Positions 16,686 through 54,279 of a stretch of DNA of 64,000 nt are shown here, piece by piece. Source of the DNA: Macrostomum lignano (lineage: Eukaryota); the NCBI GenBank assembly GCA_002269645.1, contig NIVC01000944.1, positions 254,588 to 318,587 of the forward strand. The letters run 5' to 3'. The stretch's first letter is position 1. The number at the start of each line of letters is the position of its first letter. The notes under the pieces are model-generated. The model did not search any database. It was not told the DNA's origin and saw only the letters and a program-made list of their open reading frames with translations. The translations under genes were made by a program, and so were the position numbers.

Positions 16686-16736
16686 AAGTTAGGAATAATT
16701 TAACCGATAGCAATCCACCGCCCCATTCGTTCGCAG

Positions 16737-18363: not shown

Positions 18364-18395
<32 letters not shown>

Positions 18396-18471
18396 GACTG
18401 ACTGACTGACTGACTGACTGACTGACTGACTGACTGACTGACTGACTGACTGACTGACTGACTGACTGATT

Positions 18472-18503
<32 letters not shown>

Positions 18504-19365: not shown

Positions 19366-19377
19366 CTGTACCGGCTG

Positions 19378-27328: not shown

Positions 27329-28122
27329 AAATCAGATAGGCCAAAAAGCAGATGAGTGATAGACAGACCGAATGACGGCGAAGGACAAACAGAAGAGCGG
27401 AGAAGAGGGATCACAAAGTTAAAAATACACTCGTAGATATTAAGCAGATAAAAATGTGCAGGTATTAGAGATATTTCAAAATGACAAATATTACAAATAT
27501 TACGGGCCAGGAGTAAAAAAGTTTTTTGTTGATTTCAAGGCCTTTATGTTCAATAGATGGAATGGCAGCAAAGATTTTGCGCTGCTTTGCGCGCATATTT
27601 ATATTTACAAGATTCAGGGGGCCAAGGGGGGTGCGAAAAGGTGGCGTGATAAACTTAGACATAGGTTGGGGGTTGCAAGTGCGGCTGCACTGGTGCTGGC
27701 CGGTCACGTATATTCTGGCCGTCACAGTACAGAATAATACGAGCTCGCAGAATAAGGATTTTTCGGAGATTTAAGTTTTTTTCGTTTTTAGACTTCGGGC
27801 TTTTGGTTAGAGATACTGCTGGTGTAATACTTAAGCTCTGGGCTTAGCTTTTAGTATGGATAGAGAAGAGAACTTGTCTTCATTTCAGCTATGTACAAGT
27901 GACGAGGCTTTATGCTCTCGGCACGGAACACTAACCCTGCTGAAGCCCCATTCTCTTAACTTAGCGCAGACTTTACTGTACTAATTTTTTCTCTCTGGGG
28001 CCTCTGCTTCAGTGTGGTGTCTTGGTAAGAAGTTTTCATTGTGTTCTTTAAGACACGCGAAGCACAAGGCCGAAATCATGGTTCTGATGCATGATGAGAA
28101 GCAGAAAATGTACATAGCTGTC

Positions 28123-28430
28123 AGTAGTAGTGTTATATAAGGGGTTGCGCCACACTTATTGCTCGGGCGCATTGCGCGCCAGCTCGCTGGATGACTCAGC
28201 CCCTTATAACATACTACTACTACCAGGAGGTCATGGATTCAAGTGGGGTGTGATATGTAAATATATATATATATCTGTGAGTGAGGGTGTTGGGGGTGAG
28301 GGCATGTGGGGGCATTGGCTTGTGGAATATTTCACAGAACACAGAATTTCCGGAATTTTTATACTTTTAAAAAGGGGGGGTGCCCTCGCCCTCATGCCCT
28401 CACTCATTTTGAAAATCACTAAAAATAAGT
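28123..28430 (+). repeat. Left terminal inverted repeat of the Polinton
   Basis: Reverse complement of 41776-42082 apart from a handful of differences. Confidence 0.95.
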
Positions 28431-28635
28431 GAAAAATGACTAAAAACAGGTGAAAATGGTCTGAAAACAGCGATTTTTTGTGATTTTCAAAAATTTTGAA
28501 AAAGTGCAATTTTCACGATTCCAGCTCTAAAACCATGAGAAAAGTTGGATTCACGGGTCAATTTAATGCAATTTCAGATATATACAATATGAAAGTGTCA
28601 TCTAATTTAACGATAGTAAATTTTATAAATATAAA

Positions 28636-29991
28636 ATGGCCTTCAGTAAACCATTATTTCTAGGAAATGCTTTAGATATTCAGTCAGCTATAACAAAACT
28701 ACCACCCATCTTCGCCACTGGAAAATATCCTGGCGAATTTCATATTCCAGGGTATTCTTTCACTGGCCCAGGTACAAATTTAGACAAGAGACTCAATCCA
28801 ATTACAGACCGGCCTCGGTATGACAGTCTACCAATTAACCCAATCGATTGGACTGCTTACTATCATGACAAAAACTATAGAGATGCCGAAAACACTTCTT
28901 CAAATCCAGAGGAAGCTCTAGCAAAGAAGCACATTGCTGATGAAAAAATGATAGCTGATTTAGATGCTATTCCAACCAGTGACTTGTCTGTGAAAGAGAG
29001 ACTCATTCGAAATCTAGTAAAGCGTATTATCAAGGCTAAAGTTCGGTTTGGATTAGGAATTCTTACTCACAACCCCAACAATTGTATAGACTGTCTAACC
29101 ATATACGGCAATGGTCTTAGCTATGAAGATGCTTTGAAATTGCATAAAGAATATCGAAAGCCAAGAGTATTTAGAAAAATGATTCACTATGCAAAAGACA
29201 CAATTTGGCATGCAGATATCATTATCCTTCCTCCTGAAAGAGGTTACAAATATGCCCTCACTATCATAGATGGTTTTACACGTTACGCCTGGGCAGTTCC
29301 TTTGAAAACAAAGACGGGAGCGGAAGTTGCAGAAGCTTTCCAAAAAGTATTTAAGGAATCAGGAAGACGATCAGAGAGACTTTGTGTAGATGAAGGCAAG
29401 GAGTTTTATAATCAGCATATGTACAAGCTATACTCGTTTTCAAAAGACGACATAAGAAAGAAAGATGAAAATGGGGAGTATATTAACAAGATGTTCTCAA
29501 TTTATGGTGAGTCTAAGAATGCAATGATTGAGAGGTTCAATCGTACTCTCACAAATAAACTCTAGTTTGAATTTGATCTACAAGGAAACCAGAAGTGGCT
29601 CCACATATTGCCAGCTATTGTTGAAAAATACAACACAATCCATTCTGAGATTCTGATAACTCCTTTAGAAGCATCTAAACATCCTGAGCGAGTACCAAAG
29701 CCTTCATTTGAGTATTCAAATGAGAAACCAAACTTCAAAGTAGGTGACAAAGTTCATATCTATAGATATAAGGAGCACTTTGAAAAGGGTCGAAAAGGTT
29801 ATTGGAAAATTTCACAATTGTTTAGGATAAAGAAAATAGTTTATTCAAATCCCATAACCTACATTATTGAGGATGAGAATGGAGAAGAAATTATTGGATC
29901 ATTTTACAAATCCCAGCTTTTACCAGCAAATTTTCCAACAAAAAATGAGCGCCAATCGAACACACTGCAAACGGGCGAAAGGTCAGATTGA
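28636..29991 (+). CDS. Parvovirus-VP1-type phospholipase A2 fused to an rve integrase; one in-frame TAG at 29563-29565
   Basis: HIPGYSFTGPGT, PINPIDWTAYYHDKNY, IADEKM (PLA2); WHADII, IDGFTRYAWAVPLK, VDEGKEF, IERFNRT (D-D-E). The ORF at 29608 is in the same frame and continues KWLHILP...GSFY. Confidence 0.88.
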
Positions 29992-30367
29992 AACGTCTGA
30001 TTCACAACTACTAGCTGATAAAGAGGGTGAAGGAATTGGTGATATGATCAGTGGTGTCACAAACTTTTTATCAAATCATGGAAGTAAAATTGTGAGTGGA
30101 GCTGATGCAATAGGTAAAACAGCTACCACAGCGAAGAACATATTCGATGCGAAGAAATCATACAGTGACATGTCTAAAGCAGGTGAGGAACTGGAATATA
30201 TTAAAAAGAAACGCCGAGAAAAGGAAGCAAAGAAAAGAATGGAAGAAGAGCATCAGATAGCTTCACAATCAAACAAGGCCATTCAAGATATTGTTAAAAA
30301 GGCTCTAGGAACAGCAGAACAGTCTCAAGTGTCTTTGAGACAAGGCAATGGTTTGAAGAAATTCTGA
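29945..30367 (+). CDS. Small basic hypothetical protein, candidate virion core/membrane-lytic protein
   Basis: AAAAATG start; KEGEG followed by amphipathic GDMISGVTNFLSNHGSK; ends RQGNGLKKF. Confidence 0.6.
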   Translation: MSANRTHCKRAKGQIETSDSQLLADKEGEGIGDMISGVTNFLSNHGSKIVSGADAIGKTATTAKNIFDAKKSYSDMSKAGEELEYIKKKRREKEAKKRMEEEHQIASQSNKAIQDIVKKALGTAEQSQVSLRQGNGLKKF

Positions 30368-30375
30368 CCTTAAAA

Positions 30376-30832
30376 ATGAGCGAGAAAAACACTGAAGCAA
30401 GACTCAATCGATATGTTCGAGAGGGAAAACCAAGATATGTTACTGTAAATAAGCAAAAGCAATATCTTTCTAAAGAGAAGATTCGAGAATTGCAAGAGAA
30501 ACAGAAAGAACATGAAGGTGGAATAATTCCTCTATTAGGCTTACTACCAGCAATTTTGGGTGGTATCGGAGCAGCCTCAGGAGTTGGTACAATGATTGCA
30601 AAAAGTGTAAATACAGCCAACAATGCTAAGCATAATAAGAAAATAGAAAGCATTGAACGGCAAAAACTAGAAGAGTTGAAAAAGGCTCAAGGGAGTGGAG
30701 TGTTAGTTGATGCGGCTAAAAGAGTCGAACAAGTACCGTACCCAGCAAAGCAGTCAAGTGGCTGCTAAAGACTTTTAAAGTTGAAAAGGAGAAACAGGGT
30801 AATGGGATAATTCTTAGACCTCACGAAGCTTA
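30376..30832 (+). CDS. Adenovirus pX/mu-like core protein; probable frameshift near 30740
   Basis: Basic N-terminus, then EGGIIPLLGLLPAILGGIGA (resembles adenoviral pX GGILPLLIPLIAAAIG). A shifted frame continues AVKWLLKTF...KQGNGIILRPHEA* to 30832. Confidence 0.55.
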
Positions 30833-30853
30833 GTTGAAATTTCTCGTATAAAA

Positions 30854-32005
30854 ATGGAGAACAAAAAGGATATACTGAACCTATATGAGAGCAAAACTTT
30901 TAGCTTTTTCAAAAAGAAAGAAGACTATATTAAGATTTCGCCCACACCAGGTAGCACTAATAATCTCAATGTTGCAGGAGGTCAAATAGTTCATGAAGTC
31001 AATTCAACAGAGTCATACATTCTCATGTCAGAGGCATTCGGTTTTATAAGATACTCGATAACACAGCGAGATAACACAGACTTGAATACGAACATTACTC
31101 TAGAACATAATTGGCCTATGCGTCTGTTTTCTCAACTTATTGTGGACATAGGAGGATCAAAGAAAGTATATAATGATCCTGGAGAGTATGACACAATCTT
31201 AAAGTCCGTAATGTACTCAAAATTAATGAATGAAGTTGGAGAAGCATACGGATGGATTCCAGACACTGGAGATGCTGGGACTGTTTCTGATATACCTCTA
31301 GCAAACAACGCAGATGCTGAAGCTGTGAGAACTGCAGCAATCGCTATGAAAAATAGACTTAATAAGAAGGATTCGAATACTGGATACATTAGGAGGCTTG
31401 AAAATTATAATGTCACTAATGCTCCAAACAGAGGTGGAACAATCAAACTATCATTAACACCCCTCATTGGGTTCCTTGATTGGCAGAAGATTAGCAAAGG
31501 AATTAAATACAAATTTACATGGACAAGAAAGACTAACGATGCTGAAATTTTCTTTGGAGCTGCTGGGACGGAAGCTAAGTTAACTATTAATAGCTTTGAG
31601 ATTTGGATCCCTGCTATTACTTTGTCACTCAGTGCTGAAGAAGCTTTTCTAAAATCACTCAACAAGGACATTACAGTATCATTTCCAGAGAGGGTAACGG
31701 TTCCGCCACAACTCATTCAAGGAAGTCCATATACATGGAACATAACCAGCGTCTCCAATATGCCACTTGCAATCTTTGTAGCCTTCAAATATGACGTAAA
31801 CAATCCATCATATATAGTTAATGATCACAAGTATGTATCTTACAAGACTGGAGCAAATGCAGTAAAAATAACCCAGCTTCAAGTCAGATTAAATCAGGCG
31901 ATGTATCCAACTGATTATGTTGATATTGATCCAGTAGCTCAAGACATTCATAAAGCGTATGAAATGTACGAGGACATCTGCAGCCATTTCGGTGTAACTC
32001 CGTGA
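30854..32005 (+). CDS. Major capsid protein (double jelly-roll, PY/hexon-like), apparently C-terminally truncated
   Basis: 383-aa beta-rich ORF in the capsid module with Polinton MCP-like segments (PLAIFVAF, ITQLQVRLNQAMYP, AYEMYEDIC); ends abruptly at a rearranged junction. Confidence 0.72.
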   Translation: MENKKDILNLYESKTFSFFKKKEDYIKISPTPGSTNNLNVAGGQIVHEVNSTESYILMSEAFGFIRYSITQRDNTDLNTNITLEHNWPMRLFSQLIVDIGGSKKVYNDPGEYDTILKSVMYSKLMNEVGEAYGWIPDTGDAGTVSDIPLANNADAEAVRTAAIAMKNRLNKKDSNTGYIRRLENYNVTNAPNRGGTIKLSLTPLIGFLDWQKISKGIKYKFTWTRKTNDAEIFFGAAGTEAKLTINSFEIWIPAITLSLSAEEAFLKSLNKDITVSFPERVTVPPQLIQGSPYTWNITSVSNMPLAIFVAFKYDVNNPSYIVNDHKYVSYKTGANAVKITQLQVRLNQAMYPTDYVDIDPVAQDIHKAYEMYEDICSHFGVTP

Positions 32006-32079
32006 TGAGGATGTAACTTCGGTGATGAGGATGAGCAAGATTTGTATAAGGATGTTCTAACTAAAATCCCATTGTAAAA

Positions 32080-32811
32080 ATGACTAATGAATATATAAGA
32101 CAACTCATTAATTTAGCAAAGCAGCGAGAAATGTACAAATCCAGAAATGATGCTCAACGCTATTTGAAAATTGGAGAAGAGAGTTTATATGCAAGAGTGG
32201 CTCCATTAGCTCAAAAACCTGTCACAGAAAAGCTTGATCAATTTATTGATGTCAATGCCAACCTTGTTGATAAACTTCAGAATCAAAAAGTTCCAGTTCC
32301 GCAATCAAGTACACCAAAAGGACGATTTGAACCTCTGGAAGTATTTGACAAAATAATTGAAGAAATTGGAAAGATTCCAATAACTCAAAGACCAGCACCT
32401 AGTATACGAATTCAAAAAACAGATGCTGGATATATATTTGGATCATCTGTAATAGATGTTGAATTCCATGAACAAGGTCGAGACATCATTGTCAACGAAT
32501 TTCGAATGCCATTTTCTGAAGATCTTGAAGAGTTGTTCAAAATGCCTAAAGTAACTGAAAATGGTGAAGAGCTGAAGCAATTCAAGATGCAAACATTGCA
32601 GGATTATGTTAACCTCATTGAACACTGTAAAAATCCAGCAGCCAAATCAAGTGGGAATTATAAGCAAGCAGTAAGGATATTGAAAGATAATCCACCAGGA
32701 TATCGAGTAAAACCGGGATCTGGACTCAGTGAAAGAGTGTTGACATTACTAGCCGCAAAAGCAGAGGGACATAACAATGTTGATAAAGAGCTAGAAGAAT
32801 TACTTGCTTAA
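32080..32811 (+). CDS. Conserved Polinton hypothetical protein (243 aa)
   Basis: C-terminal PGSG...ERVLTLLAAKAEGHNNV resembles the G.G...RL.LL.A...GN motif recalled from Polinton accessory ORFs. Confidence 0.55.
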   Translation: MTNEYIRQLINLAKQREMYKSRNDAQRYLKIGEESLYARVAPLAQKPVTEKLDQFIDVNANLVDKLQNQKVPVPQSSTPKGRFEPLEVFDKIIEEIGKIPITQRPAPSIRIQKTDAGYIFGSSVIDVEFHEQGRDIIVNEFRMPFSEDLEELFKMPKVTENGEELKQFKMQTLQDYVNLIEHCKNPAAKSSGNYKQAVRILKDNPPGYRVKPGSGLSERVLTLLAAKAEGHNNVDKELEELLA

Positions 32812-32813
32812 AA

Positions 32814-33607
32814 ATGGAAAAAGAAATAGAAAAAGTCAACATCCTCATGAGTAAAAAGTTTCAACGCACATTTGACTTCTTTTCAATTAAAAACCCATTT
32901 CGACAAACTCTAGGCACTCCGATAAATTTGTATGAAGATCGAGAATACGAAGCTGGTATAAAAAAGTTTGCAGTATTTGATGCCATTAACAATATTGAAG
33001 GAGGCAATAATGAGTTGCGATACTCGAGGGATAGTGGTAGAACATGGAAAAAAATAAAGATTCAAGCAGGATCTTGGGAAGTTAAAAGTCTGTCAAGTGA
33101 GATTCAAAGATTGCTAACAGCTGCAAATGATTGGAAAGAGGGAGCTATTGTCTTCAGTGCAAGCCTAGACACGCGTAGAGTTGAGTTACGGTTAGCCACA
33201 GATTATCAAGTTGATTTCAGGGATGCACATTCCAATAATTTTAGAAGAGACTGTTGGGATTCAATTCAGAAGTGTATTTGAAACCATTTGAGAGAGCTCC
33301 AAATCCAGCTCGGATAGACGGAGCTAGAAGTGCGATCATGGTTCGTTGTCTAAATATCAAAGGGGGTTTTATCACTAATCCAGCCAATGGAAATCATTTA
33401 ATTGATAAGCAAATACTTCTTTCAATTCCATCGTTCTCTGTCCCAATGGGAAGTAAAATTATTCAAGAGCCTGCAAATCCTGTGTACCTACCACTAACTA
33501 CAAACATGTTGAGCACATTCGACTTTGTCATTGAAGATGAGTCTGGTGTTCTATACGACTTTGATGGCGAGGAAATATTTATAAATCTACACGTACGACA
33601 AATATGA
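32814..33607 (+). CDS. Minor capsid protein (penton, single jelly-roll, PX-like); frameshift near 33250
   Basis: PINLYEDREYE, INNIEGGNNELRY, IQAGSWEV, LLGF, MVRCLNI, GSKIIQEP, IEDESGVLYDFDGEEI..LHVR; two overlapping ORFs joined by one shift. Confidence 0.75.
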
Positions 33608-33616
33608 GTGTTAAAA

Positions 33617-34048
33617 ATGAGCGAAGCTGAGACATGGAATGCATTTAAACAAAAGTTTGGGACTGACACTACGACTAATATTGATCTGATAAATTGGGCA
33701 AAATATCTCAAGTTAAAACCATTTCGCTATGCCATGAGAGATGAAATTATTGATTTACCACAGTATGGTTACTTTATGACAAATATTCACACTTCGAAAG
33801 AACGGGGTATACATCATTCAGCTATCTTTTCAGCTCCTGATAAGGTTTATTTTTTTGATTCCTATGCACTACCGCCCACACTAGAAATTATGGAAAAGTT
33901 TAATCACACAAAGAATAGAATATGTGGAGACATGGAAGAACAAATTCAAACTTTAGATAAGAAATTTTGTGGTCAAATGTCGCTGTACTTTTTACATCGA
34001 ATCGATAAAGGAGATAGCTATAATGAAATTTTGCAGCAATTAAAATGA
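33617..34048 (+). CDS. Adenain-like (C5) cysteine maturation protease
   Basis: GIHH (His), YFFDSY (Asp), QIQ, FCGQMSLYF (Cys); intact ORF. Confidence 0.85.
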   Translation: MSEAETWNAFKQKFGTDTTTNIDLINWAKYLKLKPFRYAMRDEIIDLPQYGYFMTNIHTSKERGIHHSAIFSAPDKVYFFDSYALPPTLEIMEKFNHTKNRICGDMEEQIQTLDKKFCGQMSLYFLHRIDKGDSYNEILQQLK

Positions 34049-35422
34049 GTTACAAGAATACTGCCAATCAATTTGGTTACTCGTCAAATTCAAATGATAT
34101 AGCACCTGGAATAACAATAGCGTTAGCTGATGATCGATACATCAATGAAAATGAAGGATATAAGAGAGAGGAAATAGATAATTTATTGTTAGCAAAGAGA
34201 AATGTTTCAGACTCTTATTCAAAGGAAGATAGTGACGCAATGAATATCACCATGCTAAAATTAATTGACGATGCTCATGGGCGCGTAAACAATGTCTACA
34301 CAAAAACCGAAATTGACACTATGATGTATTCTAAAACTGAGATTGACACTAAGATGTATTCTAAAACTGAGATTGACACTTTGTTAGCGGAAAGGCAAGG
34401 TACTGCGGCAGGTACAGAGAGTTCGAAATTAGTCAATATTCTTTCATTACTGACTTCAAACGCTTCCCATCCTGACATGAAAGTGACCGCTTCTCATAAC
34501 TCTTCAGCAGCATATCATGTTGCAGATTCAAACCCAGCTTCAGAATGGAGCAGTGTAGATGACTCAGACAAGTGGATACGATTTCAATTTTTGAAAAGAG
34601 CTAGGAAAGTTGTAGAGATAAAGTTGGAAGGAGAGGTGTGGCCTGGTTGGTCTGTTAGTGTGAGCCTAAATGGAACAAACTGGACACCTGTTGAACAAAG
34701 TGCACCCATTGAACTACGAAGGGCAATGCACATCTTAGGAAAAAATACCCAATCCCTCATATTATTTCCATTATTCTCTTAATTTTTCTGGTTCCGTAAA
34801 GCTTACAAAAGTTGAATTACTTGAGAGACAAACAGTGGTTAATGATTTAGTGTGGCCTATAGATAGACTTCAAGCTGTACCAAAGCTATACGTAGACAAT
34901 GCACTTGAATCAGTGGAGCTGCGACTAAGGCGGGGACTAGGTTTCAAATCTTATACAGGATATATCCCCCCACTAGCAACACGTCAAAACTATAGAGAAA
35001 GGGGTTTCAATGTAGCGTCATCAGGAGCATTTGAAACGTCAGATAATTGGGGTTATATAGTATCTAATTCAGAATGGGCATCGAGGAATGAACCCAATTC
35101 TTACATTGAAGTACAACTTCCCGAGTCTATTCAAATTTGGAAATTCGGATTGAAAGGAACCAAAGCAGTAGGTAGTGAAATTATAAAAAATCAACCAAAA
35201 AGTTTTATTTTAAAAGGTAGCAATAACAAGAGAGACTTTAAAAATATTTTTTCTACCGAAAACGCTGGTTTAGTTCCTGGAGTGATGAAGTATTTCGAAG
35301 TAGCTTTCACCGAAAAATTCTCCGTTTATAGAGTGCATATTAATTCGGCCACTGAAGGATCAACTGTTCTTATAGTTTCAGGCTTTCAACTTTATCCGAT
35401 TTTAGACATAATTGCCACATAA
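34045..35422 (+). CDS. Fibre/spike-like protein with YxKxEID repeats and two discoidin (F5/8-C-like) domains; frameshift near 34740
   Basis: YKREEID, YSKEDSD, YTKTEID, YSKTEID x2; ASEWSS..WIRFQF..VSLNGTNWT and SEWAS..YIEVQLP..FILKGSNN..YRVHIN. The second frame is open from 34739. Confidence 0.62.
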
Positions 35423-35424
35423 AA

Positions 35425-36158
35425 ATGAATGATAAAAATGAACACATCTATCCTGTGGTTGAGCTGCATGAAGCAGATTTGAGGGAGCGGGACTATTTCA
35501 ACCAGAGAAAGGGTGAAATCAAAGGCAGTATTGAATGCATTACTAAAGATCTTACAATTTATAGCAAAAAGGTAAAAAAGAAAAAAGGATAAATTGGATC
35601 AACATTGTGACAGGAAATGTAAGTCTCTTGGCTGCTACAGGAATTGGCATAGCAACATCGATACTGATATTGAATCCCTTAGTCATTGGAGTAGTAATCG
35701 GGGCAATGAGTGGTTTTGAAGCTGTAAAATCCACGTCGTTGTTTGCAACTGTGAAAATGCATTGCCAAAAGCAGAAGGCAAAATACATTGTTCTCAGAGA
35801 TCTGGCAAATCAATATAGAGAGAGATTGTATATTTACTCCCAAAAAGCAGTTGATGATTATAGATTAACTCTTGAAGAGGTTCAAGCAGCTGCTGCAATT
35901 TATTCAGAATACAGAGAGAAAAGAGATCAATTGTTAGACACCTGTGTTGCGCCTGAAGAAGTTAACCATTCGGAAGTCGTTGATAAAATCCTTAAAGAGA
36001 GTAGACTTGGTCAATCAGCGAAGGAAAAAATTAAAAAGGAACTGCTGGAGAAAGATCTGAGAGAAAAATTGGGTCAAAGCCATTGGGATAAGCCAAAAGA
36101 GTACTCGGCAACACTCAATCTTCAATCAAATGCTCCAAGTGCGCCCCCCTATGCTTGA
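35425..36158 (+). CDS. Membrane-associated Polinton protein (GasderminX-like); frameshift in the A-run at ~35576-35587
   Basis: Hydrophobic hairpin LLAATGIGIATSILILNPLVIGVVIGAM followed by QKAVDDYRLTLEEV...Y..KR, matching the recalled SKAL.D..IS..EF pattern. Confidence 0.5.
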
Positions 36159-36183
36159 GTCTGTTTAATTTTTTTTCTTAAAA

Positions 36184-39100
36184 ATGGAAATGAAAATACC
36201 AGCGGCCTCTTATGAATTTGATCTCGACTCCGTTGAAGAAATTCCCGGTTTAATCTCCCCAATTCTTTCTAAACATTTGATGACTAGAGATTCAATAAAA
36301 TACAGAATTTCCTTTGTCGCAGAATTTTATAAAGGAACTACCGACAGTTGGATTGAGTTCCAATATCATTCAAAGTATCGAACTTTGTTAAATCTGCTTC
36401 AAGTTGAAGATAGTATTGAAAGTACAATAAGGGATGTTCTGGATGAATTTGATGAATGGAAGGATAGTTTTAATGAAAGGGGATCGGGATATTATTTTGT
36501 TAAGTTAGTAAAGATTGTGTTGAAAGTTGTTGGCATTAATCAGTTGAAAGGAGGAACTTATATTCCAATTCCAATTAAATCAAACGCATTAGTAAATGTT
36601 AAGAACACTAAAGACAATAGGTGCTTTCTCTGGTCTATTTTAGCAAAGCTCCATCCTGTGAAGGAACATAGATATAGAGTTGGTAAGTATACACAGTATA
36701 TAAATGAAATAAACTTAGGAGACGTTAAATTTCCAGTGGACATTCGAGATATCTCTGATATTGAAAAGTTGAACAGTCTTCATATAAATGTGTTTGGATT
36801 GAGAGATATAAATACTAAAGAGTCAATATATTCTATTCGTCTGACAGAAGATTACGACAACCCCGATGTTATTGATTTACTACTTGTTGAAAATCATTAT
36901 TGCTTAATAACAGACTTGTGTTTATTCCTCACGTCCCAAAATTACAACAGGGTTTTTCTTTGTCGAAAGTGTCTTCAAGTCAAATACTCCCAGGATGCAC
37001 TGGATAATCATAAAGCAATCTGTAATGACTTCAAAGTGTCAATTGAAGTTCCAAAGATTGATAAGAGGATATTAAAGTTTAAAAACTACCACATGAGTGT
37101 AAGAAAGCCATTTGTGTTTTATGCTATATTGGATTATGTAACTTTGGATGATAAATCGCTAGAACTATCACAATGGACACTTTTTACTAGTTCTGATTAT
37201 GAAGACATTATACAGTCGGATATTATTTCAAATACTACAGTGGAATCATTCGTTGAAACCGTAATAAAAAAGTTTGAGCATATAAAAAATGAAATGGATA
37301 GATATAAACATCCAAGATTAAGTGATGTCGAAGAGACTGATTACAAAGCGGCAGAACAATGTTTTCTCTGCTCAAGGCCATTTGTAGATAGTAAAAAAAT
37401 TCGAGAGCATAATCACTACAATGGTAAATATCGCGGCGCAGCATGTCAATCATGTAATACCAAGGAGGGCAAGGCGAATCAAACGGTGCCATTGTTTCTC
37501 TTGAATGAATCTGGAAAAGATCTAAACTATTTGATAGTTCCATTAACAAGAATAAAGAATGCAGCATATAAATTGGATTTCATTTCTAAAACATCTGATG
37601 ACCATGTTGCAATCAAGTGGGGGAATTATACCAGTGGTGTTGTGTTTTTAGATGGATCTAGGTTTTTGGAACCACCATTTACACTCTCTGAAGAAGAAAT
37701 AAAATATTTGCCACCCAGTGATACAACAGCAGTAATTAGAAAGATTTACTCATTTGTCAATGCTTTTGAGACGTTTCGATCAACATTTTTGAAATATTTC
37801 AAGATAGATCCTGCGTATTGCTTTTCCCTTTCTGGATTATCGTGGGCATGTGGGTTGAAATATACCAATGTGGAATTGGAATTACTTGGTGATAAAGATA
37901 TGATATCCATGGTAGAAAGTGGTATTCGCGGCGGTTTCTCTGGAGTTCTTGGAGAAAAATGAATAACAAGTATTTAGAAAATTATGACAGCAATTCTGAA
38001 TCGTCGTACATGCTATACTTGGACAAGAATAATTTATATGGTGAAGCAATGATGAAAAATCTACCTGTGGGAGATTTCAAGTTTGAAAATGATCTAGAGT
38101 ATCACAAGAATATTCCCCAATGGCAGGGGTTGTTTTCTTGAAGTTGACCTTGAATATACAGAGGAATGTAAGAAAGCTACAAGTAAATATCCACTGGCTC
38201 CTGAGAAACGAACAACTAGATTTGAGGATTTATCTGATATACAAAAGCAATATCTTGAAGTCGAAAAGAAAAAGTTTGTTCAATCCAAGTTGATGTTGAC
38301 ATTTTACAACAAGGAGAAATATGTTTTACATCACAGACTACTTGAGTTTTATGAGAAGATGGGCATGCGAGTTATGAGAGTTCATAGAATTATTTCATTC
38401 AAAGAATCAAACTGGTTGAGTAAATACATCGAATTTAACACCAGGCGGAGAATGGAAGCAAAAACTAAATTTGAGAAAGACCTGTGGAAACTACTAAACA
38501 ACTCATTCTACGGTAAAACAATCGAAAATGTAAAGAATAGGTCGAACTTTCATCTTGTAGCTGAAGAAAAAACTGCAAGGCGTTATTTTTCTAAACCAAA
38601 TTTCAAAGATTTCATTATGTTTAGTGAGGATGCGGTTGGTATCCAAATGTACAAAAAGACAATTGCGTGTGACAAGCCAATTTATTTAGGAATGGCTATT
38701 CTGGATTATGCAAAAATGCTAATGTACGATTGCTATTACAATGTTATTGAGAAGAATTGGAACAGCTGTCAATTGCACTATTCTGATTGTGATTCGCTAA
38801 TATTCTCAGTGATTACTCAGGATGTTTATGAGGATCTTGAAAAAATTAAATAACACTTAGACACATCGGATTATCCAAGAGAGCATCCACTATACTCCGA
38901 GAAGAATAAGAAAGTCATTGGAAAGTTGAAAGATGAAATGAACGGTTCAATAATTTCCGAAGCTGTATTCCTGCGGTCAAAGGAGTATGCTTTCACTACA
39001 GTTTCAGGGGAGTGTGTTAAGATTAAGGGAGTTGATAAAGGCAGTACAAATATAAAGTTTGAAACATTTAAAAACATACTATTGACAGATTACAAAGATA

Positions 39101-39243
39101 TTCAAAGAGGTAGAGTAAGTATGACTGTATCTGAAAAAAATAAAATATATATTCGTGAGATTATGAAACAAACAATGAGTCCGTTAGATGATAAAAGATA
39201 TTATTTGGATCCTATCAGATCTATTCCTTATCAGCCAATGTAA
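36184..39243 (+). CDS. Protein-primed family B DNA polymerase with N-terminal TP/vOTU-like region, C2H2 finger and EndoVII-like insert; frameshifts at ~37958 and ~38118, in-frame TAA at 38851-38853
   Basis: ERGSG, DNRCFLWS..HYCL, CRKC..H..C, CFLC..HNH..G.YRG..C..CN, GIRGG, YLDKNNLYG (A), KLLNNSFYGK (B), YSDCDS (C), GKLKDE, LRSKEY, KIKGV. Confidence 0.92.
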
Positions 39244-41691
39244 TCTCATTGATAACATCTTCGTTTATTTTTTTCGTGCACTGTAGCAACACATTTCTAG
39301 TTTCTTGCTGTTTACCATCTATCCTACGCCTATATCTATCCTTATAATACTTACAATAGTCTTTGTGATTCTTGAAGAAATCTGTTATGTATTGTTGTTG
39401 GAATTCACGTTTCTCACGTTGGGCTAGAGTCCTATAGTATTCACTCTCTGTTGCGGCAGTGTAAATTTCTCTAATAAGCATAAATGTTTTTTCCTCAGTT
39501 TCTAAAAATTCATAATTCTCTTCAAAGAAGTGAGAAAACCAATTACAATTTTGTATGAATTCATTAGTGTTTTCAATTACGCTTTTCGATCGATATATTT
39601 CACCCTTTGTTTGCTTGAAAATTTCTAGTAGGTTTTTCATCTCAGCAAACTTATATTTATTCTTAAATTCCTCGGTTTTAAGATATGAATCGGCTTTATA
39701 AATGTGTTTCGCATGATCAATGATGTCGGTATCTGTTGTATATTTACATGGGTAATTAATATTTATAATTCGTCTTTTTTCTGCATCTCCAATATTTTGT
39801 CTAAAGTCAGGCTTGTTATTACATTCGACTATCAGAGTTGCGTGTAAAACGACATTACACTGGCTTGAATATAAATTTCTAGCTTGGATAACCCCACCAA
39901 CAGTTAGTAATTTTATTGATGCATTGTTCAAGACACCACTTACTTCTTGACTGATAACCAACCTCTTTTTAATAATTTTTGCTAGGGCTGGTTGTGGCAT
40001 GTCTATTCTTATTGGTAAATTCAAAACATCAGGACTCAGTGGTGCTGCATAATCAGATCCTAGATTTCTAAGAAGTAGGTTGTCCTCAACCCCTTGCCAT
40101 TTCCACCAGCGCCATCAAACATTATAAAGTTTTCAACATTCTTACCCATTAGAGCTGTGGCTATAACGGATTCCCAACTCTTTCTGTTTTCTGGATCGGG
40201 ATGAATTTGGTTATGCAGATTAACAATGAACTCATAGTCGTCATCACTCACTCCAAGTACATCCGAGTAATTATATCCCACCGATTTAGTAACGTAATCG
40301 TCAAATCTATACTCGCGAAACTCACCTGTAAGGAGGTCGTATACTCCATCGTTAAACCCTAGCAAATTCCATTTCATGTCGAATTCAATTTCATTGTTAG
40401 TAAACCTCTCTTTGAACAAAGTAGTTACCTGTTTGAGTTTGTTGGCTCCTTGTATTGAATTTATATTCTTCATTGTACTCTGTAGTTTCTTTTCAAGTGC
40501 TTTTAACTTTTCTTTATCATCAGCCGCCTTCTTAATTGCAATTTCGAGTCTAGTCTTTCGGTGGTTTAACTCACTGCTAACAAGGTCTGATATTTTAAGA
40601 AATATGTCATTTATACTACTTAGTTCTCTCCACTTATCATCATCAAAATAGTAAACACCATCGCTATTGTAAATTATATTATTCTTCTTATATTCATAAA
40701 CAAAGTTGGTTATGTTAACGTCAGTGAAATTATCATCAAGATACTCAATCCTACCATAATAATCATATTTGCTTTTCCATTCCTTATATTTACAATAATT
40801 TTCTTCACTAGCCCATTTCTTTAGTGTACCGATAGTAAGTCTGTCCTGTGCATCAGCAGAGCTGGTATTGGTGCTATTCCACACATTTTTACATGCCTCG
40901 GAATCGAACTTATCATAATTTACTTTTGACCAATCAGTGAATACTTTGTACATTTCATCACCACTGTCTATGTCGCGGAGTATAAGTGCTACCTTGTACC
41001 AAGAATCATAGTCTTGGTTTTTGTGCTGTATTATACTTAACAACTTTGAAGCTCCTTCACAAGTGGGTGGTTGAACGGTGCTTTTTAGTGCCTGTTTATC
41101 GGGTTCTTGGTTTTCTTTTTTATCCTGTGGCTTTATTAATCTATTTATCTCATCAAGAATTACAACTGGCATGTCTATTAAACATTTGGACTTTGTACGT
41201 TTGTATTCCTTAATTTCACCATCGACATAATAGAAACCTGGTGGAGCAAATACTAAGGCGGGAATATCAAAACCCACACTTTGTTGAATCGTTACTTTCA
41301 ATCCATCTACCTTGTTAAAGTAAAAGTGATGACCCTTGTTTGTCTGAACAATCCAATCACAATGAGTCATACACAGTTCATTCAACTCAGGGCATAGGTC
41401 AGCATTATCAATATCGATTATGGTTATATTTGAGTTTCTAGTATCTATCCAAATCATGTTGTCTACATCTGGTCGAAATGGTGGTGAGGTTGAATTCCTA
41501 TCTGCTTTGGTTGGCATTCCTGATGGTATTTTTTTCTTTGTTTTACTATTCCATGTTACACTGCAACTTCCGAATCTAAAATTAAGTTCTCCATAGAGAT
41601 TAATTAGTTTATCGTACGATTTTGTTTGTTCTAAATTTGTCAATCTTGGTGGTGGGGCATCATGGTTTTGAAGCGGATCCTGTACGATCAC
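39221..41691 (-). CDS. AEP primase-polymerase + PriCT-2 + D5-like SF3 helicase; one 1-nt frameshift in a G-run at ~40095
   Basis: IIDID, TNKGHHFYF, GFD (AEP motifs I-III); YDSWYKVALIL..WS (PriCT-2); LLGFNDGVYDL; Walker A GAGGNGKG, RLVISQE, VECNNKP, KRRI. One extra G joins the two ORFs (GKGVEDNLLLRNLG). Start codon unclear. Confidence 0.88.
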
Positions 41692-41775
41692 AGGAGAGAA
41701 ACTTGAATCGTTTTGATTTTTTCTTTCGATTTTATTTAAAATAAATTTAAATATATTAATTTAAATTTAAATTTA

Positions 41776-42082
41776 ACTTATTTTTAGTGATTTTCAAAAT
41801 GAGTGAGGGCATGAGGGCGAGGGCACCCCCCCTTTTTAAAAGTATAAAAATTCCGGAAAATCTGTGTTCTGTGAAATATTCCACAAGCCAATGCCCCCAC
41901 ATGCCCTCACCCTCAACACCCTCACTCACAGATATATATATATTTACATATCACACCCCACTTGAATCCATGACCTCCTGGTAGTAGTAGTATGTTATAA
42001 GGGGCTGAGTCATCCAGCGAGCTGGCGCGCAATGCGCCCGAGCAATTAAGTGTGGCGCAGCCCCTTATAACATACTACTACT
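41776..42082 (-). repeat. Right terminal inverted repeat of the Polinton
   Basis: Reverse complement of 28123-28430; contains a perfect 25-bp internal stem (41983-42007 / 42058-42082). Confidence 0.95.
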
Positions 42083-42709
42083 GCTGTCTGCTTGTCGGGA
42101 GGCAAATAGCATTATATATATGAGCGTAACTTGGGAGTTTCGCAACTTAGAGATGCGGCATTCGCTCGGTAAAGCTATGTGCTCTTCAACAAACAAAATA
42201 CAAGCTTCCGAAGCTCACCTTTAATATCGCCAAACATAGCAAGCAATTATATCGTTGGAGAAAGTGAGTACATGAAAATTTGATCGTGTTGTTACCTTTT
42301 TGTTAGATGCCGATCATTCTAATCTTTGTAGCCCTTGAATGTTCAGATATGCTCAGCAACATTGAAAAGTTGCCGCTCTATGCGCCAGTGAGCAATTTCT
42401 CTTGGACCATTCTGAAATAAAAGACTGAAATAAAAGACGAAAAAACTGATCGGGGTAGCTTTAATCCGTCCAACCCTCGCACACCGCTCCACCACTTCAT
42501 TCCACAACTCAAGTCTTCCGTCGCGTAGCTGAGTTGCGTCACTCACAAATATTGAGAGACTTTACCTACACTCTCAAAAGTGGCCACCACGGACGAAATC
42601 TTCTGTGATGGCGACTTTTCGATGTTGCTAAGTATATACCATTGACTGTTCAGATATGTCTTTGAGTAGTAGGCATGATGACAGTTCCAGGCCAAAATTG
42701 TCAAAATCC

Positions 42710-43062: not shown

Positions 43063-43439
43063 TGGGAAAACCAGTCTCCCCCTCTCCTCATAGCTCGTAC
43101 ATTTCTACACAGCAAGTTCCAAGCTCTCGCTTTCCACGTTTTTACGTAAAGTCAATCCATGGTAGCTCCATCTTCAGAGTACGGTTAATTCACGATATTT
43201 CCACGGTAATTCCATGGGTTTGCCTAGCAGAGATTAGGTCCATGTTCAGACGGTAATTCCACAGAATTGCCGTGGAAATATCGTGGACTTGCCAGGCAGA
43301 GAGAGCAAAGATATACCAATCTAGCCTCGCCTCTCCTCATGCAAATACATTGAGAGAAATTGGAGACAGAAAAAGAAAAGGCCCACTTGAAAGCGCATGC
43401 GAGCATACATTGTAATCATGCCTACTACTTCTTTGACTG

Positions 43440-43828
43440 TTGACATGCCATTATATGCCATTGACTGTTCAGATATGCCATTGACTGTTCAGATATGCCC
43501 TTGACTGTTCAGACAGGCCATTGACTGTTCAGATATGCCATTGACTGTTCAGATATGCCATTGACTGTTCAGATATGCCCTTGACTGTTCAGACAGGCCA
43601 TTGACTGTTCAGATATGCCATTGACTGTTCAGATATGCCATTGACTGTTCAGATATGCCATTGACTGTTCAGATATGCCCTTGACTGTTCAGATATGCCC
43701 TTGACTGTTCAGATATGCCCTTGACTGTTCAGATATGCCCTTGACTGTTCAGATATGCCCTTGACTGTTCAGATATGCCCTTGACTGTTCAGATATGCCC
43801 TTGACTGTTCATATATGCCCTTGACTGT
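43440..43828. repeat. 20-bp minisatellite (CC[A/C]TTGACTGTTCAGATATG)
   Basis: Visible tandem units; one isolated identical unit at 42639-42658. Confidence 0.93.
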
Positions 43829-44431
43829 TGTGGGAGCCGATGCAGTCTGAAAGTTTATTTGGGGGTGTCAAGATAAAGATGGTGTGCTGGGACTACATTG
43901 CTCTGCTTGATCACCCAGAGCACCTATTACCGAGTTCTTTGCAATATTTCTTTGTAACCTTGTTAAAGTATGGGTCTGAAAGAGATTACTGTGACTCAGC
44001 GTCCATGCTTGTATCTCTATCATTCACGAAAGTTCAAGTGCACAGCCTTCAGCATGCGTTCTGGCATGCTCTTGATGATGGGTTGGCCTGTAAGATGGTG
44101 TAAATTCTGAATCTGTCACCAAATAGTAGAGAAGCATAAGATTATAGGAGTATTAAAAGCATATCAGAAGAAGCAAGTAAGTGACACTTTCCATCGCCAG
44201 GTTGATACTTAAGAGTTTCAATGTCACTTTGGATTCAGGAAAATAACTCGGTAGAGTTAAGTCTTGTTATGATAACTACACATAAATTAATTTGATTCTA
44301 ATGACACTTCAATGCCAGCGCTCAGGAGCATGATTTCTTATGATCGATCGAACATTTCCCTAAGCCACAAATTCATGAAATGGCGTCCATCAAGCATTCT
44401 CAGCAAGCTACACTCATCATCTGAACTGCAG

Positions 44432-47400
44432 ATGCAGATGCAGAAGAGGCCGACGCCCTCATCGTCGGTGGAGTCAGCGTCAGATCAAACTGCTCAGCAT
44501 GCAGCCCGAATGGATTACAAAGCTCAGCAGCTGCAGCAGCAGCAGGAGGAGGAGCTTCGAGATAATAATTTTATGGAGCAGGCATTTCCACAGAATCCTC
44601 AGCTGAGGCACACACTGCAGCAGTCTGTAAGTGATGAATGCAAGTTGATGATACTGGTATTTAAATTGAGTTCAGGGGCGTCGCCACCGGGTGGGGACAG
44701 GGGGACACGTCCCCCCCAATGAAAGCTATGGGTGGTCACATGCATATGCTTTGTCCCCCACCCCACCTTGTGACCCGTTGTGGAAATCAATAACTTTGCT
44801 TCAGAGCACCAAAACGTTAAACCTTTGGCGTTAAAATGAGTGCTTGCAGCTCCAAAATGAGTGCTTGCAACTCCAAAACGAGTGCCTGTTGCGCTAAATT
44901 GATAAAATGAGTGCATGCAGCGCCAGGATAAGCGCTAACAACACCGATTTTTAAAATAATGCAGGAATTAAGTGAATTGACTCATGTACGGCTCATAGAA
45001 TTCTTGGCTTTGCCCCCCCCCCACCATAAAATCCATGGCGACGCCCTGAGTGAGTTTGTCATTGCGAACAAATAACTACAACAATGAATTACGATGAATT
45101 CATATCAGTATTTCATATGATGAATTATAATAAATGATAAATTTCAGATGACAATGGCTGCTCAAAACAACAGACGCGATCAGTCAGTGATGGATGAAAT
45201 CAATCGTTTGAACGATTCCATTGATGAAGCCATGAGAGACAACCCACAGTTAGTAGCAGCGATCGATGAAGTTGTGCAGGAGGAGCCGGAGTTCGTGCAG
45301 CTGCTTGAAGAAGAACAGAACGAAGCTGGGAATAAGATTTGTCAAGCTGATTTGCTTTTTGCTAAAGCAAAGGGCCGAGACGGCATGTACCCGTATATTG
45401 ACAATACTAACTCGCATCTCCTTGAACCTGGAGTGGTACTTGGATTCAAATACTACGGAGTGAATCACAATGGTATTTTGGAGTCAGTAGATAAAACTAA
45501 ACCTCTGACAGTAACGGTTATTCATTATGGCCGAGATCCTCTGAATAGTCCCTGTCGCATCATTCGAGAGAAGATAGAAGTAAAACTTGATGGAAGAAGC
45601 TTTTGGGTTGACCTTCATCCGATGAAGAGCTGCTATCCGAAGCAGACTGTCATCGCCAGAGCCAGGAGCAGGCTGAATGAGGCTGATCATTCGGTCCTGA
45701 CTAATCGCGCAAGTCACTTTTCCAAGTGGTGTAAAATTATCAGTCCAGACAACAGAGCGTGCTGTAAAGTGCCAATTTATGTGAATGACGCACTGCCTGT
45801 ACACGAACTGAAATCGGGAGACCATCTGCAGATTAAATCGGACGGAAAGCGGATTCATTGCGAGATCATTGATGTTCAAAACGTTGGTGCAGTCCCTGAT
45901 ACAAAGCGTGTGACAATGAACACACTGTCTGAGGACAGGACATCACTGACACAGATCACTCGTGATGTTACTCTACGAGATAAAAATGTGAAGCTCATAG
46001 TGCATAATGATGTGACACAGGACTGTGAGCTGCATGGAGGAGGATATGAGCAACCCAAGTACACAGCTGAGAAAGTCACTGATGTATCAGTGATTAAAAG
46101 AGGCTGCGTGATCAGCAGAAGATCAGGCACAAGTCAGCCATACTCACATTATGTTGTGATTGCTGTTCATGATCAAAATGACAAAGAAATCGACCAAACG
46201 CATGACCGAAACAAGAAAATGAAGTTGACAGTTATGACATACGCGATCAAATTCAAAAGGTCATTTGATACTCAGTTTGAGATTGTGCAAATGCAACTTG
46301 ACCTTGACAATGTAAACAAGGACGCAGTTTACTTGATAAAGTACCAAGCGATGGAGCGCACCCGCTGCTCACCTGATGAAGTTGTGAGCAGAGCATTGTC
46401 TCGTGAAGGCGAGCGCGAGCATGACATTGAGTTGAACAGCAGCCGAGACTTTGCCAGATGGTGCAGCATCAAGCATGCGAGTAACAGAGAGCAGTGCAGA
46501 GTGAGAGTTCATTCAGCTCAGCAGCTGCTGGACTTTAACAGAGGGCACATTCGCTTCCCACGTTTCAGTGTTGCCAATAAATCTGTGTATGATCATCATG
46601 CACTGATGTGTCACTGTGAAACAGTGGCTGGTCACTGTGATCTGGTTCGTGTGACACTTTATGAGAATAACAGTGAGTTAAAGAGAGTGAGAGCAGAGAA
46701 CTTGAGCATTCCAGCAGATCAAACTGTGACTAGATTTATTTATGATGGAGCAGACTGTAACGATTTGAGTGACAGGTATGATTCTGTGATGGGTCTAAAA
46801 TTCATTGATGCAGCAAACAAAATGAGCAGTGCTGACTTCTGCTTTTGGTTGAGAACTGGAGGCAGCTTCAGTGACTTGTTGGCTATAAAAGATAAACGCA
46901 GGTCGAGGCCTGAATCACTGCAGGAGAGAGTAGTCAAAGGAAATGATTTGAGGGACTCAGACCATATAAAACTTGTCAAAAAAATACACGGCAAAGAGCA
47001 GGAAGTACATTATGTTCTGACAAGCTGGGATCAGCCGTCGCAGACTTGGAATGCAGTGACTTATGAGTTTGAGGAGGATCACAGTCTGCAGTTAGGAGTC
47101 AGGCGGGTCACGGGAATTCTGCAAATCAATGAGAACAGCAAAGTTGATAAAGTTGTTCACAACCGGGAGATTGACTGGATCGAAGTTGAGAAGAAATTCA
47201 ATGAGCTGCGTGGGATGCAGATCTACGATCTGAGGTACTTCAACTGTGAGCATCTTGTGAATTATCTGACTCTGGGACGCAAGTATTCAAGGCAGTGGTA
47301 CGATGCAATTAAGAATTCCGCTCGTGCTGGCAGCCGTTCCAATGAACTGATGAAGGTGGTGAGGGCGGTGTTAAAGATTCTGACAAAAGTATCACCTGAA

Positions 47401-47745
47401 ACAGAAGCCACAGTTTCTTTTATTCCGGATAAGGGCACTGTAGTCTGTGAATCAATTGCCATTGCAATAGCTGTTGCTATGTTTATCATCAAGCTGATCA
47501 GAATAACTCGCAATTATTCTCGCAACAGAATGTCTGGCAATGAGTTTCGTGTTGAAAGGAAGAGAGCGATATTCCTGTTTGTAGCTGCAGTTGCTGGAGT
47601 GATCACAACTGCTGTAGTGATGACTGCATCGCCTCATTTCGTACTTGGCTTCCTCTCCACTGTGGCGATCGCGGCTGCTCTTGGTCTTGGAGCAGCCGGC
47701 TTATGTCGTGCGCCAGCTGCATACCGAATGATGACTGAGCCTTGA
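44432..47745 (+). CDS. Multi-domain LRAT/PLAAT-like (permuted NlpC/P60) protein with C-terminal hydrophobic helices; main exon 45148-47745, probable upstream Gln-rich exon ending at 44626
   Basis: Four LRAT-like segments ending TNRASHFSKWC, LNSSRDFARWC, NKMSSADFCFWL and YFNCEHLVNYL. TTTCAG acceptor at 45147 and phase-0 GTAAGT donor at 44627. True start uncertain. Confidence 0.7.
44673..45048. mobile_element. hAT-like MITE (376 bp) in the LRAT gene intron
   Basis: CAGGGGCGTCGCCA...TGGCGACGCCCTG ends; 8-bp TSD ATTGAGTT / AGTGAGTT (7 of 8 match). Confidence 0.75.
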
Positions 47746-50079: not shown

Positions 50080-50350
50080 GATGTACACATGCTGGGTTGA
50101 GGCTGTGCCAAATTGCTGACCATCACCATGTCAGTATGGCCGTTGTGAACCACTTGGTTTGCGCAGCTTTGGTCCGCCGCTTACGTTGATCACAGATCAA
50201 GGGGCCCAATTTTGTTCAAAGCTGCATGATGGCCAATCTGGTGAACCTTCGAATTCTTGGAGTCCACTACATACGCACATCAGCCGTTTAACTCCAAGGC
50301 TAACGGTATGACTGAGAGAGTCTAGTACACCGCACTTTTAAAACTAGTTT
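50080..50350 (+). mobile_element. Gypsy-type rve integrase remnant
   Basis: Broken frames read ITDQGAQF, GVHYIRTS, KANGMTERV, RTFK. Confidence 0.65.
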
Positions 50351-50466
50351 AAGTTGGTTGGTCATTGTTGGTTAACTCAGCTATACAGCTATCGCGTCTT
50401 GTTTAGCCTGCAGATCAATCCGGACGATAATGGCTCCTCGCCGTACTAATCTGTGACTGGCGATCT

Positions 50467-50930
50467 CGCTTATCCAGCCGCTACATGTTTATATGATGAC
50501 AGAGGTTACTTATCCAGCCGCCACATGTATATATGATGGCAGAGGTTACTTATCCAGCCGCTACATGTATATATGATGGCAGAGGTTACTTATCCAGCCG
50601 CTACATGTATATATGATGGCAGAGGTTACTTATCCAGCCGCCACATGTATATATGATGGCAGAGGTTACTTATCCAGCCGCTACATGTATATATGATGGC
50701 AGAGGTTACTTATCCAGCCGCTACATGTATATATGATGGCAGAGGTTACTTATCCAGCCGCTACATGTATATATGATGGCAGAGGTTACTTATCCAGCCG
50801 CTACATGTATATATGATGGCAGAGGTTACTTATCCAGCCGCTACATGTATATATGATGGCAGAGGTTACTTATCCAGCCGCTACATGTATATATGATGGC
50901 AGAGGTTACTTATCCAGCCGCTACATGTAC
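50467..50930. repeat. 40-bp minisatellite, ~11 copies
   Basis: Unit CTTATCCAGCCGCTACATGTATATATGATGGCAGAGGTTA. Confidence 0.95.
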
Positions 50931-51111
50931 AAGACAAAAGCGAAAGCTTTCTGGCATGTCAGTTGCAGTTTTGCGTATCTTCAGCAAATTTTTTATTGGA
51001 AGAATTATGAAATCGGGAAAATCAGGAACTGCACCGCTAATCTATTTACACGCGAATTCCGCACGCGCATCGGAGCCACGCGAGAAGCGGGCAGTCCGCA
51101 CCGAGCGCCCG

Positions 51112-53864: not shown

Positions 53865-54279
53865 CAGGAGAATTGGGTCGGACAGCTGTCACGTGACTGG
53901 GCTTTATCTAGCTCGTAATAGCATCCTATGACATCTGAGCTACCGGAATGCTCAATCAGCTGTCTTATCAACAGACGAAATGAAAAGCCACAGATACTGC
54001 TAACGAGGTGAAGAATCGATGAGTAGTATGCTGTTGACATTACTACATGTAGAATTTTAAAATCTTTTTAATTTTAATCTGAAAAACTGCTCGAACGCAT
54101 GCTTATACAACTTTATTTTTACTGTTTTTTGGCATTTGATTTTTAATGCAGAGCAGTCTGAGCAGTTTTTTATCAATGTACCGAGCAATTTTAAGCACTA
54201 GGCTGCTAATTTCCTCACATTCAGAACTATTGAAAAATTTTAAAGCTTTGATTTAGATGAAGTTATATTGGAAAATGTC

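Follow-up and report, generated by a model that had tools for sequence, protein, structure and literature searches.

In the Macrostomum lignano genome we describe a Maverick/Polinton (adintovirus) family in which the protein-primed DNA polymerase, of family B (pPolB), has lost motifs of its 3'-5' exonuclease (Exo) domain and is encoded next to a primase-helicase, both genes being under purifying selection, the primase core included. The window, by which we mean the whole 64,000-nucleotide stretch analysed (assembly GCA_002269645.1, contig NIVC01000944.1, positions 254,588 to 318,587 of the forward strand), holds one broken copy of this multi-copy family at 28123-42082, flanked by a 6-bp target duplication. 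Exo-less PolB, primase-helicase and hairpin ends co-occur in what we call the Exo-less family, and none of the three was seen in the examined families of the same genome whose PolB is Exo-intact. The pairing of a pPolB with a primase-helicase, and terminal palindromes, are already known from protist virophages; the animal Polinton case with Exo loss is new.

The PolB gene (36184..39243, + strand) comprises a terminal-protein domain, a vOTU protease, an Exo remnant with an endonuclease VII insert and a polymerase domain. In a DNA search 40 of 56 candidates were scored, yielding 43 matches, and 26 other full-length matches together with the window copy make up the 27 copies compared here. Exo I (37120..37134, +) is degenerate, reading YAILD in 25/27 copies and HAILD in 2/27, and its aspartate and glutamate are lost in all of them. 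The interval 37501..37770 (+) spans an altered Exo II, ESGKD, and a deletion, identical in all 27 copies, by which ~75 residues are gone, including KGxYPYEY and the Exo III stretch (YxxxD); the distance from Exo II to polymerase motif A is 175 residues against a median of 253. A sequence-only reading of the window had recognised part of this loss (YAILD, LLNESGKD, no KGxxPYEY) and the shortening after FLDGSRF. However, Exo III itself is missing, the aspartate of Exo II (D451), at a position invariant across 79 aligned proteins, is retained, and ~30 residues rather than 20 are left after FLDGSRF. Copy-specific decay and assembly error were considered as sources of the Exo loss and were ruled out by its presence in 27/27 copies. 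In an alignment of 268 homologous proteins, 243 of which span the Exo region (the rest are partial), all three acidic Exo motifs are kept in 236; where Exo seems interrupted in P0005, P0049, P0060 and P0258, the gaps resemble those left by gene models. Compared with 27 close relatives, the Exo-less PolB keeps 31/97 near-invariant columns in the Exo domain versus 229/294 elsewhere (p 7e-16). From these alignments we infer a polymerase that lacks 3'-5' exonuclease activity. The low fidelity that had been claimed for it is plausible, but protein relative-rate tests with three outgroups (60:53, 65:51 and 60:47, all p > 0.15) gave no significant acceleration and so lend the claim no support.

The other parts of the PolB are retained. 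Its terminal-protein domain (36202..36534, +) is predicted to form four strands and two helices, with a candidate linking serine in the GSG at 36484-36486. The Cys and His of the vOTU protease (36622..36897, +), assigned by alignment, are kept in 25/25 and 27/27 covering copies respectively, and the endonuclease VII-like zinc domain (37354..37476, +; PF02945) keeps 21 of 22 invariant columns. Polymerase motifs A, YLDKNNLYG (38016..38042, +), and C, YSDCDS (38779..38796, +), are present as first read. An alignment-based model (pLDDT 82) has the pPolB fold with phi29 polymerase as its best PDB match, mavirus PolB being a distant fold match at rank 43. In the model the TPR2 hairpin is retained, and the N-terminal domain has four strands, two helices and a Ser-Gly in the loop preceding the last strand, which is the terminal-protein layout described in PMC11161782. 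The terminal protein, vOTU and TPR1/TPR2 that mark a protein-primed PolB were thus found by model, fold search and motifs.

The opposing gene (39221..41730, - strand) encodes a Prim-Pol-type archaeo-eukaryotic primase (AEP) domain followed by PriCT-2, D5_N and a superfamily 3 (SF3) helicase. The AEP catalytic motifs DID, KGHH and D lie at 41266..41415 (-), and PriCT-2, D5_N, the SF3 Walker A, B and C motifs and an arginine finger were all identified at the level of the family. That the helicase gene keeps its motifs, as first proposed, is correct for AEP motifs I and II (19/19 covering copies) and for Walker B and C (20/20), but in the window copy a frameshift falls at Walker A near 40089. PriCT_2 and D5_N pass the Pfam cut-offs and Prim-Pol stays below (19.0 vs 22.8 bits); residues 30-235 group with Prim-Pol clusters in the ESM Atlas (0.96), and a PDB sequence search with the AEP domain returned no match. 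The gene is present in 22 of the 27 stretches, the other five ending or carrying a deletion before it, and it is therefore part of the family and not an insertion into one copy; among 74 genomic helicase matches, the best 30 are without exception located in pieces of the Exo-less family. In trees the helicase part is sister to protein P0123 (SH-aLRT 100) and then, weakly (86), to a group with three IMG/VR contigs, of which one has virophage capsid genes and two have A32 ATPases. As called, the protein of the closest relative (P0123/P0408) lacks an AEP domain; nearest-relative identity is 42%. The primase-helicase thus appears related to proteins of virophage or Polinton-like virus (PLV) type, and such a donor is suggested. 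The idea of a mosaic replicon is supported. A primase-helicase with these affinities and a catalytic core under purifying selection is part of the family. Preceding the primase gene, other copies (e.g. L035, L041) carry, beyond window position 41761, a conserved 114-aa open reading frame (ORF) with no Pfam or Atlas match, and after it a variable cargo slot, filled in some cases by an ORF of RING-finger-like type or by a coiled one of 143 aa; neither the conserved ORF nor the slot is present in the window copy.

Selection was assessed from variants common to at least two copies (~74% of changes expected to be nonsynonymous, N). Four duplicate assemblies were excluded, which leaves 23 copies of PolB and 19 of the helicase, and the counts are small. 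The polymerase domain, with 30 N to 48 synonymous (S) variants, is under the strongest purifying selection of all domains (w ~0.22). Both the Exo remnant (24 N : 28 S) and the SF3 helicase (19 N : 24 S) are depleted of amino-acid changes, and the Pfam-defined Prim-Pol core counts 2 N : 7 S (p 0.002), with private variants at 8 : 2.

The window copy itself is broken. Its PolB gene is frameshifted twice, near 37960 and near 38117, and contains a stop at 38851-38853, and its primase-helicase gene, besides the frameshift at Walker A, has no ATG where other copies start. Elsewhere, the PolB frame is open over 1027 codons in one copy and the primase-helicase frame over 837-841 codons in four, and the frameshifts at 38117 and 40089 are absent from short-read contigs in most covering runs. 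In the window the two genes converge and overlap by 23 nt (39221-39243), as had been noted, but the overlap is no family trait because two complete copies have a gap of ~25 nt. Copies at different sites reach 99.9% identity, and the family has therefore been mobile recently, while the disagreement between copy trees of PolB and of the helicase points to recombination. Two arrangements exist in the family: in 16/27 copies (e.g. C2696) the block that begins with the SLATT-like ORF and includes both replication genes is inverted relative to the window copy; the inversion junctions correspond to window 28692 and 35402, a junction is also present in two independent runs, and inverted copies have a tandem array of ~133 bp adjoining the second junction. 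A deleted, replication-only derivative of the element was also considered, and was ruled out when longer stretches revealed this inversion.

The terminal 100 nt of the Exo-less family fold as a 25-bp stem that contains the last base. At the right end of the window copy (41983..42082, -) the stem is perfect, terminal base included (z -6.1, 0/200 shuffles), and at the left end (28123..28221, +) it is imperfect, with 21/25 pairs. We compared 37 distinct ends, taken from the 30 best-scoring loci and earlier stretches, a sample biased to similar ends: the perfect 25-bp stem is found in 33, two have one mismatch, the window left end has four and one match is an internal piece. Four types of stem variant are mirrored on both arms (9, 2, 1 and 1 ends; one occurs at a single end of one element), a hint that one arm serves as template for the other, and unmirrored changes occur at three true ends. 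The loop has a single orientation in all ends seen, with no inverted loop, and a terminal stem of this kind is absent from the ends of three Exo-intact families. Neither these hairpin ends nor the Exo-intact twin family described below had appeared in the sequence-only reading.

The same genome supplies Exo-intact families for comparison. A search with an Exo-intact PolB relative gave 1005 candidate matches, 116 of which were scored, and at least three further Polinton families with an Exo-intact PolB, with many open frames, were seen. The helicase was found in 0/12 Exo-intact regions picked across score classes, the positive-control copy being detected. One Exo-intact, helicase-free family is the sister of the Exo-less PolB (quick tree, SH-aLRT 96; 51-52% identity over the polymerase part). 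Another, the twin family (10 regions), has the block from integrase through capsid to SLATT-like ORF in common with the Exo-less family, but its PolB of 1276 residues is Exo-intact and 45% identical in the polymerase part, and its termini differ. Over five segments of the block the median identity between the two families is 97.8-99.2%, about the within-family level, and their copies intermingle in trees; the module junction, in the last SLATT-like codons just before 36184, is the same in 7/7 inspected. Given a common block, distinct PolB and termini and one junction, replication genes and termini were therefore exchanged together. The helicase was inside 0/10 twin-family elements, one of which has an Exo-less-family fragment outside its end. 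Termini or fragments of the Exo-less family directly adjoin twin-family elements (L329:61-1453 of C2167; L332 of C3908; C1874), and such adjacency is a possible setting for module exchange. The replication genes of the Exo-less family are more diverse (median 98.2%) than the twin PolB (98.8-100% to one copy), which may reflect greater age. In metagenomes, a helicase of this type was near 0/30 related IMG/VR PolBs, and 0/80 IMG/VR helicase loci had this PolB class, the only class tested (flanks of up to 10 kb in both cases); scanning viral contigs for the capsid protein, for P0123 and for PolBs of the close clade gave no match, and 14 metagenome loci, being 1-9 kb, are too short to reveal absence of the helicase. 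With counts of 0/30 and 0/12, the pairing is rare among related Polintons, and PMC3671162 describes pPolB with primase-helicase as uncommon.

We favour helicase-assisted protein-primed replication with the primase serving the displaced strand, to which we would give an even chance; it is also what has been proposed for mavirus, and was reached here independently. An Exo-intact ancestor would have acquired a primase-helicase of virophage/PLV type, leaving the Exo domain free to decay into a remnant kept as a scaffold without nuclease activity. The terminal protein, through the Ser in GSG, would prime at the AGT repeats of the termini and be released by the vOTU domain. The SF3 ring would unwind the duplex ahead of a polymerase that no longer opens DNA well alone, and the primase would initiate on the displaced strand or restart stalled forks. 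The 100-nt terminal palindrome may be a loading or origin signal, and its outer arm would be renewed from the inner one. In the phi29 polymerase the DNA-unwinding tunnel is made up of Exo and TPR2, and strand displacement is lost in Exo-site mutants (PMC6351526); by comparison with that tunnel, a PolB without the Exo residues and a further ~75 residues therefore likely needs a helicase. In mavirus and PLVs, too, the loss of Exo goes together with the acquisition of a helicase (PMC11161782). Within this genome, the helicase likely compensates for a weakened PolB because the twin family combines a proofreading-type PolB with no helicase.

Several points weigh against this reading. The association of Exo loss with the helicase is one evolutionary event, n = 1 whatever the copy count. 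Unwinding would require no more than a helicase, which leaves the retained primase in need of another, presumed role; with TPR2 intact, the polymerase may still displace strands to some degree; and the hairpin ends are equally compatible with hairpin and with protein priming. Selection on the terminal protein is weak (12 N : 10 S, p 0.04-0.05), and AEP region 40-215 (27 N : 14 S, p 0.13), of which only the Pfam-defined core is selected, is indistinguishable from neutral, as are D5_N (22 : 9) and the linker. Four sequencing runs cover both replication genes, the RNA origin of these runs being a guess. A wider interpretation, which we offer tentatively and rate as less likely than not, is that an animal Polinton has been stably converted to a three-part system (terminal protein, Exo-less PolB, primase-helicase) with self-templating hairpin ends, and that the whole replicon has been swapped as a cassette with a proofreading replicon on one capsid/integrase chassis, which would give an otherwise identical virus two replication modes and possibly two mutation rates.

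In a first alternative, the primase-helicase would open and prime the DNA internally or at hairpins, the Exo-less PolB would elongate and the terminal protein would only complete or cap the ends on a folded 3' overhang, as in Streptomyces linear replicons. We consider this doubtful, if worth weighing. The 33/37 perfect stems with their mirrored variants, the Exo-intact families without such ends and the selection on the primase core would all fit, and there are precedents: in Halocafeteria virophages terminal palindromes prefer non-pPolB replicases and hairpin priming has been proposed (bioRxiv 10.64898/2026.07.28.741278), and end patching on palindromic overhangs is reported (PMC4513846). However, the loop occurs in one orientation only, with no flip-flop, three true ends carry unmirrored changes, and no family-specific nicking or resolving enzyme was identified. 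Simple hairpin transfer gives flip-flop loops, and a parvovirus-like replicon joins a terminal hairpin to a nicking enzyme.

It seems improbable to us that the family is caught in transition, with either the primase-helicase or the polymerase taking over from the other and Exo loss as the first step of polymerase decay. Two-replicase virophages have been read in this way (bioRxiv 10.64898/2026.07.28.741278), it agrees with the turnover model of PMC11296320, and replicase swaps are frequent, also in this genome. Nevertheless, the polymerase domain is under the strongest purifying selection, the vOTU and terminal-protein residues are kept, and the Exo deletion is identical in 27/27 copies with the remnant itself under selection; both genes are distant from anything else known to us (nearest relatives at 51-52% and 42% identity), which speaks for long coexistence. 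The shift between modes envisaged in the sequence-only reading is accordingly not borne out, since selection still acts on both genes and, within PolB, on the terminal protein and the vOTU protease. We hold it very improbable that the association is a coincidence, with the primase-helicase a selfish or accessory passenger and Exo lost otherwise, e.g., because a higher mutation rate was favoured. Independent mobility has been proposed for AEP-SF3 genes (bioRxiv 10.64898/2026.10.13.758929), the slot adjoining the primase gene holds variable cargo and the family's replication genes are more diverse than the twin PolB, but the best 30 helicase matches in the genome are all in Exo-less-family pieces, the helicase is never inside the twin family despite exchange of the common block, the catalytic and SF3 cores are under purifying selection and the relative rates are not raised.

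The remainder of the element is in keeping with its class. The left target-site duplication GCTGTC (28117..28122) recurs as the identical six letters at 42083-42088 on the right; matching duplications were also found at copies C2696, C2232 and C4094/C4788, and flanks are non-matching in three other assembled copies. The terminal inverted repeats carry the AGT repeats of Maverick/Polinton elements, the left one (28123..28434, +) beginning AGTAGT and reaching ~570-640 bp in fuller copies, and the right one lying at 41772..42082 (-). A PLA2-like domain is fused to a retroviral-type integrase (28636..29991, +; PF08398 and PF00665, the latter above cut-off), with a stop at 29563-29565 in the window copy. 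This domain, at the integrase N-terminus, is of parvovirus type, and the first part of the gene is repeated within the inverted repeat of fuller copies. Beside the integrase, fuller copies have a gene for a restriction endonuclease of Eco47II type (L075:742-1425; E 5e-7, over the Pfam cut-off) that is absent from the window copy, and a 61% identical gene of this type was seen in one sister-family copy. Two small basic ORFs (29873..30768, +), with no Pfam match at cut-off, probably encode virion core proteins. The double jelly-roll major capsid gene (30854..32005, +; PF21738) is cut in the window copy by a ~950 bp deletion that removes its end and the packaging ATPase; both are present in fuller copies, and the A32 ATPase of a fuller copy has a Pox_A32 Pfam match. 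Database proteins of Macrostomum lignano include a capsid protein 100% identical to that of a fuller copy and a PolB fragment 96% identical. The interval 32080..34048 (+) holds an ORF of unassigned function, a probable minor capsid gene (split) and a probable maturation protease gene, labels drawn from position and motifs; the two candidates are at the expected place, in common with the sister family, and have no Pfam match. A fibre-like gene with F5/8 type C domains (34045..35422, +; below Pfam cut-off) is split in the window copy, and a SLATT-like two-helix membrane ORF (35425..36158, +; weak SLATT_1 match, E 0.03) is the last gene in common with the twin family. Some 3 kb outside the element, an intronless 865-aa ORF (45148-47745) has an LRAT-domain match with apparent repeated LRAT-like units, and unrelated minisatellite arrays around the element (units of 8-74 bp; 3097-19860, 43373-43912, 50349-55064 and 63115-63979) give rise to spurious ORFs.

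The PolB has no PF03175 match, which is the mark of a Beta adintovirus PolB in PMC8502044, and the class is assigned by that definition. Like the Beta adintoviruses/animal Maverick-Polintons of that paper, the family has terminal inverted repeats and a 6-bp duplication, an rve integrase, an OTU-PolB without PF03175, a double jelly-roll capsid, an A32 ATPase and a probable protease, at 14-19 kb; unlike Beta adintoviruses, it has lost Exo I and III and has an AEP-SF3 gene, palindromic termini and a PLA2-integrase fusion. In a survey of 22,033 Polinton pPolBs, Exo motifs were conserved in all taxon groups (bioRxiv 10.1101/2023.08.22.554363). Mavirus-like virophages (PMC11161782, PMC13215967) also have a terminal protein-vOTU-pPolB with degenerate Exo, a separate SF3 helicase gene and an rve integrase. 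However, a primase domain is absent from the helicase of mavirus (PMC3671162), mavirus has shed most of the Exo domain where the Exo-less family keeps a remnant with an endonuclease VII insert, and the mavirus PolB is of another lineage. The Exo-less PolB, in an animal host, nests among those of Exo-intact animal Polintons, and the capsid matches PF21738 only; the family is therefore not placed with mavirus-like virophages. The virophages of Halocafeteria seosinensis (bioRxiv 10.64898/2026.07.28.741278) likewise combine pPolB and D5 primase-helicase in one element, with palindromes at the inverted-repeat ends beside the target duplication and modules common to lineages in one host. They differ in being protist virophages whose two-gene state is read as transient, and Exo status and selection are not discussed in the accessible text. 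Multi-replicase polisuviruses (bioRxiv 10.64898/2026.10.13.758929) have a second replicase, and identical morphogenetic genes with different replicases, but they are single contigs, with no mention of the exonuclease in the accessible text, in contrast to two multi-copy, recently active families in one genome here. The terminal protein, palindromic ends and possible split between bulk synthesis and end completion of Streptomyces linear replicons (PMC4513846) are an analogy, and we claim no homology. AEP-SF3 genes also replace pPolB in Maverick-Polintons (bioRxiv 10.64898/2026.06.19.733378). The sequence-only reading had seen here a candidate for an undescribed system, which is not supported, since pPolB with D5 in Halocafeteria virophages, multi-replicase genomes and the mavirus combination of Exo loss with helicase gain have been reported. 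An animal Polinton with the present combination was not found in the accessible text of PMC12721341, PMC11131425, PMC11296320, PMC13215967 or PMC10120064, and we found no account of the Exo-less family in the literature, although Repbase/Dfam, subscription journals, figures and bioRxiv supplements may contain it or similar ones.

The link between Exo loss and helicase gain came previously from deeply separated virus groups. The Exo-less family adds an independent case with natural controls in one laboratory-animal genome, namely an Exo-intact twin family and an Exo-intact PolB sister. With natural proteins and existing DNA it thereby becomes possible to test the idea of compensation, what a primase does in a replicon that is protein-primed, and what terminal palindromes are for.

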